The notes: a model not told the origin generated them from the sequence alone. Positions 12,114-13,294 are shown, counted from the stretch's first letter. The stretch: DNA of 24,000 bases from Chromobacterium fluminis (GCF_011602385.1 NZ_JAAOMA010000010.1:10003-34002); one strand, 5' to 3'. A program made the numbers and translations.

Positions 12114-12384
12114 GTCTAAGAGCCTGTTCGAGCATGTTCAGTGAAAAGCCTTTCCATGGCCAGGCAGATGGACAGGGAGCCACGCTGGATTAGAGCTTGT
12201 AGGTTTTCTCATTGGGTGCTGGGGGCTTACCAAGTTACAGTGCTGGCGGATTGGTGCAACAGAGCCATCCCACGATAATAACCATCGTCCTTTAAATAAC
12301 TGTGTCAATAAGAAATATATTCTGAAGAATTAATTTAGTACCCGTCCTATAAAATTTAGGAAAAATTGAGAGTAGGGTTGCGTC

Positions 12385-12401
12385 TGGCATGATTCATGCC
12401 A
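12385..12401. promoter_or_regulatory. 17-bp perfect palindrome TGGCATGA-T-TCATGCCA; also reads as a sigma-54 -24/-12-like element
   Basis: Read directly. TGGCATGATTCATGC fits TGGCAC-N5-TTGC at GG/GC with correct spacing. It lies 85 nt upstream of the ATG at 12486. Because it is palindromic, it is equally compatible with a dimeric regulator site. Confidence 0.3.
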
Positions 12402-12485
12402 AAGAGATCGCGGTGCGTTTGAATGGCCGTACTTTTCGATCGTTTACTGGCGCAGCGGGTATTGATTAAATTCGAGGAATAATGG

Positions 12486-13232
12486 ATGAAAATAAAACAA
12501 GGGATTTTCGGTTTCGTGGTGTTGACAAGCCTGTCTTGCACGGCTTATGCGGAGATATTGGCGGATCAGACCATGCCCAATGGAGACCCCAGCATAGCCT
12601 ATCCGCAAATCTGCATTAGAACCAACCGCACCCCGGAAAAGACGGACATGGCTCCCATCATCAAGAAGGCGGATGAAGTAGCCAACCAATTTCCACCAGA
12701 GGATTACATCAATCGCTCCAGAGCCGTGATGACGCACCTGACCAAGGAGTTTGGATCGGGCAAGTTTGGCCATACCTGGATTAATGTGTTCCATGACCGG
12801 ATCGGTACCAACACTCCCTCGTCTTATAGTTACCGCGAAGGCAAAGGTTATGTTAAAAATAATTCGCAAGATAGCCCGACTAGAAAATTCCACCTTCAAA
12901 GATGTGTGCATCTGAAAAGCCCGCAAAAACAAATCAAAATCCTTGAGCAGGTGATTGTGCCCGAGCTGAATATGGCGAGCTATTTTGCCGGCTTGGCCAT
13001 GGGGGTGCCCAATGCCGATCCACAGAATGGCGTCTATACGCCCATTCACAACTGCGCATGGTTTGGCGGGATTGTGTGGAATGTGATGATGCAAGAGGAG
13101 CATGTGTTTGCGCAGCCATTCAATGGCGCCGCGCATGCCAATGTGTGGGGCATGCCTTTCATGAAAGCGGTGAAATCCATTTATGAACCGGGAATGATTG
13201 CCGAAGGGCTTAAAAAAGCCGGCAGTCGTTAA
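12486..13232 (+). CDS. secreted protein (Sec signal peptide) with permuted papain-fold-like His...Cys motifs; family not identified
   Basis: GAGGA RBS 7 nt upstream. Signal peptide MKIKQGIFGFVVLTSLSCTAYA/E. Motifs FGHTWINVFHDR (H96, H103) and YTPIHNCAWFGG (C190). GC is markedly lower than the flanks. The 273-aa antisense ORF 12444..13265 looks like a shadow ORF (His/Arg-rich, no RBS). Confidence 0.75.
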   Translation: MKIKQGIFGFVVLTSLSCTAYAEILADQTMPNGDPSIAYPQICIRTNRTPEKTDMAPIIKKADEVANQFPPEDYINRSRAVMTHLTKEFGSGKFGHTWINVFHDRIGTNTPSSYSYREGKGYVKNNSQDSPTRKFHLQRCVHLKSPQKQIKILEQVIVPELNMASYFAGLAMGVPNADPQNGVYTPIHNCAWFGGIVWNVMMQEEHVFAQPFNGAAHANVWGMPFMKAVKSIYEPGMIAEGLKKAGSR

Positions 13233-13258
13233 GGCGACCGCGTTTGCCCCGCGCCTGA

Positions 13259-13288
13259 GCCCCAAGGAACGCGGGCGCTTCTTGGGGC
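13259..13288. terminator. hairpin between convergent genes (possible bidirectional terminator)
   Basis: GCCCCAAG (13259..13266), a 14-nt loop, then CTTGGGGC (13281..13288), followed by TT. It lies between the stops of the 12486..13232 (+) and 13295..13603 (-) genes. There is no long U-tract. Confidence 0.45.
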
Positions 13289-13294
13289 TTCAGC

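Follow-up and report, generated by a model that had tools for sequence, protein, structure and literature searches.

A horizontally acquired single-gene islet of Chromobacterium fluminis encodes a predicted exported protein with an invariant His/Cys pair from a small orphan family

The analyzed window, a stretch of 24,000 nucleotides from Chromobacterium fluminis, contains a lone gene whose product may well be a Sec-exported, thiol-dependent enzyme of a rare and undescribed family, borne on a self-contained, horizontally acquired cassette. In the proposed arrangement, the islet would comprise its own promoter block and a single gene, and the encoded protein would function as a hydrolase or an acyl/group transferase, a catalytic role that we infer. 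Specifically, Cys190, located at the N-terminus of a helix, would serve as the nucleophile, and His96, at the start of a β-strand, would act as the general base, the two residues forming a thiolate-imidazolium dyad. The features of the gene and its product are as follows.

12474..12478, + strand: Shine-Dalgarno sequence GAGGA, 7 nt before the ATG; AGGA is kept in the other copies
12486..13232 (stop included), + strand: coding sequence of 248 aa, member of an unnamed orphan family, assigned from homologs and dN/dS
12486..12551, + strand: signal peptide of the Sec type (SPase I), predicted to comprise residues 1-22 and to be cleaved after AYA, assigned from sequence inspection and h-region hydropathy
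12600..12632, + strand: conserved motif YPQ-I-C-I-R-T-N-R-T, residues 39-49, first β-strand, with Y39, P40, Q41 and R45 invariant
12612..12614, + strand: Cys43 codon, putative disulfide partner of Cys140, from co-occurrence
12771..12773, + strand: codon of the invariant His96, within the motif G-x-x-G-H-x-W, proposed general base
12903..12905, + strand: Cys140 codon, putative disulfide partner of Cys43, from co-occurrence
13053..13055, + strand: codon of the invariant Cys190, within the motif Y-T-P-x-x-x-C-x-W-F, proposed nucleophile

Sequence comparison indicates that the gene at 12486..13232 is real and under purifying selection. Each of the three pairwise comparisons between Chromobacterium copies gives a dN/dS ratio of 0.10-0.12 on the + frame, which, together with the cross-phylum homologs, identifies this frame as the gene; on the same grounds, an antisense ORF of 273 aa (12444..13265, − strand) is dismissed as a shadow frame. 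The length of the ORF and the positions of the His96 and Cys190 codons (12771 and 13053) are exactly those given in the first-pass annotation of this DNA. That annotation had also described a fall in GC content after about 12190. The fall itself is borne out, with 48.8% over 12190-13290 against 62.3% for the genome, while the count reported for 12281-12340 needs correction, since this segment contains 15 rather than 17 G+C among its 60 nucleotides. The GC content is 49.5% for the gene and 42.2% for the preceding segment (12190-12485), and it ranges from 55 to 63% in the neighbouring genes. The gene lies within the lowest 4.6% of 747-bp windows of the genome, and its deviation is real but moderate, at approximately 2 SD. 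Its GC3 is 0.59, compared with 0.67-0.78 in the neighbours.

On the left, the gene is flanked by a cluster encoding a cyclopropane-fatty-acid synthase, a DUF1365 protein and an amine oxidase (− strand), and by a TetR gene (+ strand). The genes on the right, all on the − strand, encode a DUF1484 protein, an OprB porin, a GH1 β-glucosidase, a PTS EIIBCA protein and a BglG-type antiterminator. Matches to the gene were found in three of 20 Chromobacterium genomes (G000, G001 and G002), one of which retains only a deletion remnant. The gene is intact in G000, the genome of the window. The G002 copy, with 74% protein identity, resides in an unrelated context, and the parts in common are limited to 12471-13232 and a short upstream piece. 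In G001, a clean 1065-bp deletion corresponding to window positions 11959-13023 has brought the TetR gene next to codon ~180 onward, and the remnant contains an in-frame TGA. A further copy in Chromobacterium sp. Panama (87% identity) shares the right flank of the window and has two very large ORFs without Pfam domains on its left, and other members of the genus carry the TetR block followed by different DNA. Since the flanks differ between genomes, the gene occupies a variable junction and moves as a cassette of gene and promoter. An operon with the TetR or DUF1484 gene is ruled out, as these flanks are not conserved alongside the gene.

Comparable evidence of mobility is found elsewhere in the family. 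In Enterococcus faecium, Enterococcus faecalis and Lactococcus lactis, members reside on plasmids that are conjugative or mobilizable, and the member from Aeromonas sp. CA23 lies in a region rich in transposases and integrases. In Xenorhabdus innexi, Aeromonas hydrophila and Proteus, the family member is a lone chromosomal gene. No conserved neighbour gene was detected in the contexts examined, where the family member is always a lone cistron, and the family was not found in the phage collection searched. An LPMO gene lies a few kb away in two of the Enterococcus plasmid contexts, an association too weak to build on. In a maximum-likelihood tree, the Firmicutes, the Gammaproteobacteria and the Chromobacterium clade are interleaved in a poorly resolved polytomy, a topology compatible with horizontal spread that is no proof of its direction. 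Deviant composition, patchy distribution, variable flanks and occurrence on mobile elements are all features of a genomic islet and are all present here. As judged from these genomic comparisons, the islet is horizontally acquired and its gene is mobile, which agrees with the earlier description of a low-GC islet of one gene.

The gene is accompanied by a conserved upstream block, and a hairpin separates it from its right neighbour.

12314..12401, + strand: upstream cis-block travelling with the gene, also kept in front of it in two other Chromobacterium genomes
within 12334-12349, + strand: inverted repeat TAGTAC-N2-GTCCTA, with arms kept and a spacer that varies
12366-12371, + strand: −35-like element TTGAGA
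12388-12393, + strand: −10-like element CATGAT
12385-12401, + strand: 17-bp palindrome overlapping the −10-like element, perfect only in the window genome
13255..13293, unstranded: GC-rich hairpin where this gene and the convergent DUF1484 gene end, lacking a T-run

The elements TTGAGA-16-CATGAT constitute a sigma-70-like −35/−10 pair. The block 12314-12401 accompanies the gene into the unrelated context of G002 and is also conserved in Chromobacterium sp. Panama. Furthermore, a second copy of positions 12330-12398, 83% identical, is present on another contig (C132) of the same genome, upstream of an unrelated small orphan ORF located at the end of a low-GC chaperone-usher pilus operon of the ECP/Mat type. 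Two exact occurrences of the 16-mer TTTAGTACNNGTCCTA are present in the genome, whereas ~0.01 are expected, as estimated from base composition; a copy with one mismatch (~0.5 expected) precedes the pilin gene of the same pilus operon. The shared block is a hint that two horizontally acquired functions, surface-located or secreted, are regulated together, and common ancestry of the block would explain its presence at both loci equally well.

The orphan family is small and has sharp limits, as database searches show. When 1.84 billion representatives were searched exhaustively with phmmer, 26 family proteins were obtained, and a word-seeded search of 5.8 billion proteins yielded ~30 clusters. 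Searching 5.8 billion proteins with the family profile returned only the family itself, adding a few long members, with nothing between E-values of 1e-88 and 1. The homologs are distributed over three bacterial classes in two phyla. Members occur in Chromobacterium, Aeromonas (hydrophila, salmonicida, jandaei and veronii), Vibrio cholerae, Proteus, Serratia liquefaciens, Yersinia aleksiciae, Hafnia and Xenorhabdus, as well as in Enterococcus, Lactococcus (garvieae, and plasmids of lactis), Lactobacillus terrae and Companilactobacillus metriopterae. These organisms are largely associated with insects, fish and the gut. Some members possess C-terminal additions, namely Big_3 Ig-like, StcE-type β-sandwich, hemopexin-like or unassigned domains, and the window copy is the bare domain without such targeting modules. 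Every named family member is annotated as "hypothetical protein" in its record, and literature searches for the family returned no match.

By sequence criteria, the window protein is exported. Its N-terminus, MKIKQGIFGFVVLTSLSCTAYA followed by EIL across the predicted cleavage site, displays a basic n-region, a hydrophobic h-region (mean Kyte-Doolittle hydropathy of 1.92) and the AYA cleavage motif. In the alignments, the conserved mature domain begins directly after the signal peptide, exactly where the leaderless homologs start. The clean signal peptide claimed at first reading is thus recovered in all its regions by inspection, by hydropathy and by the start of the domain. The mature protein after the predicted cleavage would comprise ~226 aa. 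A lipoprotein is ruled out, as the S-L-S preceding Cys18 does not form a lipobox. Since the window genome encodes a GspD secretin, a route beyond the periplasm exists. About one member in three genuinely lacks a leader, as in-frame stops 8-10 codons upstream show for those from Xenorhabdus and Aeromonas CA23, so that extracellular action cannot be taken as given for all members.

An alignment of 24 sequences, extending down to 26% identity, revealed fifteen invariant positions: G33, Y39, P40, Q41, R45, G92, G95, H96, W98, R133, F135, C190, W192, F193 and N199. In the same alignment, N47, F102, S165, G182, Y184, G236 and E240 are near-invariant. Both H96 and C190 are present in 38 of the 38 sequences tabulated, confirming that the His-before-Cys pair proposed from the single sequence is a property of the family. 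Besides this pair, the only invariant polar residues are Y39, Q41, R45, R133 and N199. The second histidine proposed at first, His103, does not share this conservation: position 103 is occupied by H, N, Q, R, E, K, Y or D across the members, and the occurrence of eight residue types excludes a catalytic role. No invariant polar residue lies between positions 97 and 132, and a conserved third catalytic residue was not detected on the strand following the histidine. The 24-sequence alignment contains no invariant Asp or Glu and no second invariant His or Cys that could complete a metal site, and the invariant ligands are too few for such a site.

The cysteines follow two distinct patterns. Cys190 is the sole cysteine of the domain in 13 of the 38 members, indicating a free thiol; the alternative that it forms a structural disulfide, which the first-pass annotation had listed against its own reading, is therefore rejected. 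Cys43 and Cys140 occur together in 19 of the 38 members, Cys43 is accompanied by Cys111 in three more, and the Firmicutes forms lack both Cys43 and Cys140. This co-occurrence indicates a Cys43-Cys140 disulfide in the Gram-negative forms, the leaderless ones included, and the covariation fits an oxidizing, extracytoplasmic location.

AlphaFold2 with the family alignment predicted the whole protein with a pLDDT of 87.2 and a pTM of 0.84, and the isolated region 88-214 with a pLDDT of 86.6 and a pTM of 0.82. According to DSSP assignments of both models, C190 is the first residue (N-cap) of a helix spanning residues 190-202, and H96 immediately precedes a strand spanning residues 97-102. The order of elements is also the same in both models, with the His strand followed by a β-meander, a long helix and the Cys helix. 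Papain-like proteins are defined generically by a Cys nucleophile at the N-terminus of an α-helix and a His on a β-strand (PMC10318531). Both predicted models agree with this clan CA architecture in the placement of C190 and H96, and their order of structural elements resembles that described for permuted NlpC/P60 enzymes (PMC3142127). The first-pass annotation had named the lack of a papain-like core in fold prediction as an outcome that would speak against its reading. Foldseek, which was the sole means of fold comparison and is not permutation-aware, detected no PDB match for the full model (best E of 0.55, TM of 0.13) or the core model (best E of 2.6, TM of 0.28 or below), and as far as such a comparison tells, no such core was recovered and the outcome speaks against that reading. 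The full-length model likewise had no match in BFVD (best E of 0.43).

The motifs of the window protein had suggested a PPPDE/DeSI-like or LRAT-like enzyme. This assignment did not withstand profile comparison. Although the Pfam-A models scanned include PF05903 (Peptidase_C97), PF04970 (LRAT), PF05708 (Peptidase_C92) and PF00877 (NLPC_P60), hmmscan at E ≤ 10 matched none of these models to the query or to the 25 family members scanned. NCBIfam gave no match, Pfam-A as a whole and the PADLOC and PHROGs scans gave no meaningful match, and sequence searches of the PDB with the single sequence and the family profile produced only noise (E > 0.1). In hhalign comparisons against shallow profiles (6 sequences for bacterial LRAT, 4 for C92/YiiX and 15 for NlpC/P60), the family scored a probability of 0.1% against LRAT (E of 0.6), 0.1% against C92 and 0.0% against NlpC/P60 (E of 0.93), each equal to its reversed-sequence control, whereas the same shallow profiles recognized one another with probabilities of 43% for LRAT-C92, in which the His and Cys motifs were aligned, 59% for LRAT-P60 and 10% for C92-P60. 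PF05903 was found in none of 301 genomes of the phylum; hence, no PPPDE profile was available for hhalign. As gauged by these searches, the family is not a detectable member of PPPDE, LRAT, YaeF/YiiX or NlpC/P60. The likeness of motifs (H-x-W and N-C-x-x-F) is real for a few residues and carries no statistical weight.

These results bear on a rival explanation, according to which the protein is truly homologous to the circularly permuted enzymes of the NlpC/P60 type (LRAT/HRASLS, YaeF/YiiX of C92, and PPPDE/DeSI of C97) but has diverged greatly from them. It would then share their architecture of His sheet and Cys helix, and its activity would be that of an amidase, isopeptidase or lipid acyl-transferase. 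The order of His then Cys and the predicted succession of elements noted above are in line with such an origin, and bacterial LRAT members carry the motifs H-x-x-I-Y-x-G and N-N-C-E-H-F, which are similar to G-H-x-W-(I/V)-x-(V/I)-F and N-C-x-W-F of the present family. An active site consisting of a dyad without an obligatory third residue is accepted for C97 (PMC10318531). However, structures of PPPDE1, YiiX and BcPPNE (PMC3142127) and of Desi-1 (PMC10318531) are deposited in the PDB, and Foldseek matched the models to none of them. Considering also the profile comparisons at the level of the reversed controls and the variability of position 103, where LRAT-type enzymes have their second His, we regard this homology as unlikely.

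The likenesses and differences can be specified for each known family. As in LRAT and H-RAS-like suppressor proteins (PF04970), the His precedes the Cys by ~90 residues and opens a strand of the β-meander, and the Cys lies in N-C-x-x-F at a helix start. LRAT-family enzymes are typically cytosolic or membrane-anchored, whereas the present protein is predicted to be exported, carries extra regions at its N-terminus (strand/helix) and its C-terminus (helical), and lacks a fold match to this family. PPPDEs are mainly eukaryotic and cytosolic; the present family shares with PPPDE/DeSI (Peptidase_C97) the His-first pair but differs from it in being bacterial and exported and in matching neither PF05903 nor the PPPDE structures. 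The YaeF/YiiX lipid amidases (Peptidase_C92, PF05708) are permuted Cys/His enzymes of bacteria in which the His comes first, and a Tyr is conserved close to their active site (PMC3142127); in the present family, a near-invariant tyrosine, Y184, lies six residues before the Cys. In contrast, the YaeF/YiiX cluster is typified by a GD motif on its strand 1 (PMC10318531), which is not conserved in register here, and hhalign and Foldseek detected no relation to this group.

No homology or fold match to any characterized enzyme emerged from the Pfam, NCBIfam, PDB sequence, Foldseek and hhalign searches, as would be expected if the protein were not an enzyme at all. It would then be exported and have a binding or structural function, with His96 and Cys190 contributing to the fold or contacting a ligand; a module that binds a ligand or cofactor, an adhesin tip and a toxin subunit are examples. 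The fusions to Ig-like, β-sandwich and hemopexin-type domains would also suit an adhesin or scavenger, and a structural role is conceivable for the many invariant positions occupied by Gly, Pro or aromatic residues. Against this, an invariant lone free Cys at a helix N-cap combined with an invariant His, maintained down to 26% identity, is a classic signature of catalysis, and two invariant potential ligands are too few for a structural metal site. A non-enzymatic role therefore seems quite unlikely to us. A free thiol in an exported protein is unusual unless it is functional, and the present protein otherwise avoids or pairs its cysteines. Taken with the placement of Cys190 and the invariance of His96, this argues for a catalytic dyad and favours the reading of the protein as a thiol-dependent enzyme.

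If the protein is such an enzyme, the remaining invariant residues can be assigned provisional roles. Q41, N199 and/or the near-invariant Y184 may stabilize the oxyanion. Y184 has the same spacing from the Cys as Gln19 in papain. The two invariant arginines suggest an anionic group in the substrate, and R45 and R133 may hold this part of it. In the Gram-negative members, the putative Cys43-Cys140 disulfide would brace the sheet. Should Cys190 and His96 prove catalytic, the compact domain of ~220 residues would represent a new exported thiol enzyme family and possibly a new fold.

The target of the enzyme would probably be extracellular and derived from a host or the environment, since some members are fused to surface- or glycoprotein-binding modules, an immunity-like partner is lacking, and the ecology of the carriers points in the same direction. 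The domain fusions also provide a route towards the substrate of the family. The family resembles secreted multidomain virulence hydrolases, which carry Big_3, StcE-type β-sandwich or hemopexin-like modules, in the C-terminal modules of some members and in the host range of its carriers, which are associated with insects, fish and the gut; it differs from them in that the module studied here is unrelated to their usual metalloprotease or glycosidase domains. An alternative target would be other bacteria, with the protein serving as an antibacterial effector in interbacterial competition, for example as a cell-wall amidase delivered to competitors. Thiol amidases are common among antibacterial effectors (PMC10318531), and leaderless forms occur in Gram-negative genera that possess contact-dependent secretion systems. 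However, none of the nine contexts examined contained an adjacent immunity-like gene, a secretion-system gene, or a T6SS, Rhs or CDI neighbour, the window copy possesses a Sec signal peptide, and the PADLOC and PHROGs scans revealed no relation. An effector of this type is accordingly highly improbable.

Returning to the exported enzyme, we tentatively extend the proposal, as a possibility on the doubtful side, to a structurally new class of exported Cys/His enzymes, whose fold would either lack a relative in the PDB or contain a papain-like core diverged beyond recognition. Horizontal transfer might have carried such enzymes to bacteria associated with insects, fish and the gut, among them Vibrio cholerae, Aeromonas hydrophila, Xenorhabdus and the hosts of the Enterococcus plasmids, where they might act as colonization or virulence factors on a host-surface or matrix substrate, with the Big_3, StcE β-sandwich and hemopexin fusions as targeting modules. 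The family is common to opportunistic and insect pathogens across two phyla and travels on conjugative plasmids. Being small, sharply bounded and confidently predicted, it is tractable for structure determination and activity-based profiling.

At the right border of the islet, a 76-nt stretch containing the hairpin at 13255-13293 folds at −32 kcal/mol, which is only modestly more stable than shuffled sequences (z = −1.8). The hairpin is absent in G002, less well conserved in Chromobacterium sp. Panama, and conserved in G001.

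The approximately 70 bp promoter/operator block upstream of the islet gene has a second copy in the same genome (G000), at locus L040 on contig C132. The two copies and the neighboring genes of both loci are arranged as follows.

Features of the two loci
Window 12330-12398: promoter/operator block
Window 13295-13603, minus strand: DUF1484 gene, one of a family of paralogs that is multicopy both in this genome and across the genus
Window 15192-19534, minus strand: genes for a BglG antiterminator, PTS EIIBCA, a GH1 phospho-beta-glucosidase, and an OprB porin
L040 1398-1466, minus strand: second copy of the block, 83% identical to the first
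L040 pilus operon: genes for a MatB-like fimbrillin, a chaperone (EcpB-like), an usher (TcfC/CooC_C), a 544-aa product that lacks Pfam domains and takes the tip-adhesin position, and a second chaperone (EcpB_C)

Downstream of the second copy is a short ORF, also an orphan (L040:959-1342, minus strand). Across the four copies compared, the arms of the inverted repeat TAGTAC-N2-GTCCTA are constant, while the spacer is variable. The exact 16-mer of the block occurs twice in the G000 genome, against an expectation of approximately 0.01, and a version of it with one mismatch precedes the fimbrillin start in L040 by about 30 bp. In the window, the 17-bp perfect palindrome TGGCATGATTCATGCCA (12385-12401) overlaps the predicted sigma-70 -10 hexamer. 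This palindrome is perfect in G000 only and is degenerate in the two other Chromobacterium copies. The region of L040 at approximately 900-8100 is a low-GC island (42-50%) that carries an ECP/Mat-type chaperone-usher pilus operon.

In the genus relative G001 (L005/L003, contig C1, around position 1500), a deletion of 1065 bp, equivalent to window 11959-13023, has taken out the promoter together with roughly the first 179 codons of the islet gene, leaving a C-terminal remnant with an in-frame TGA. The left breakpoint is located 3 bp past the stop codon of the TetR gene and only a few bases ahead of where the REP-like elements begin. The REP-like intergenic repeat at window 12035-12093 is present in at least 20 copies in G000 and in many copies across the genus; the adjoining 73-bp element (window 11967-12039) is single-copy in G000 and multicopy in other genomes of the genus.

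A DUF1484 paralog with 91% identity is encoded on the same contig (C11:36221-36558), approximately 2.2 kb beyond the 3' end of the window. The minus-strand genes at window 15192-19534, which form the conserved right flank, constitute a complete bgl-type aryl-beta-glucoside utilisation cluster.

At the homolog of Chromobacterium sp. Panama (L034), the TetR block is replaced by two very large ORFs. Both ORFs (L034:1-5531; >1256 aa and 1032 aa) point the same way and lie directly upstream of the homolog, and neither has a Pfam match on record. In Enterococcus, two plasmid-type contigs have a gene for a lytic polysaccharide monooxygenase (AA10), or a fragment of one, 2-4 kb upstream of the homolog (L041:3486-4124 and L029:2641-2859).
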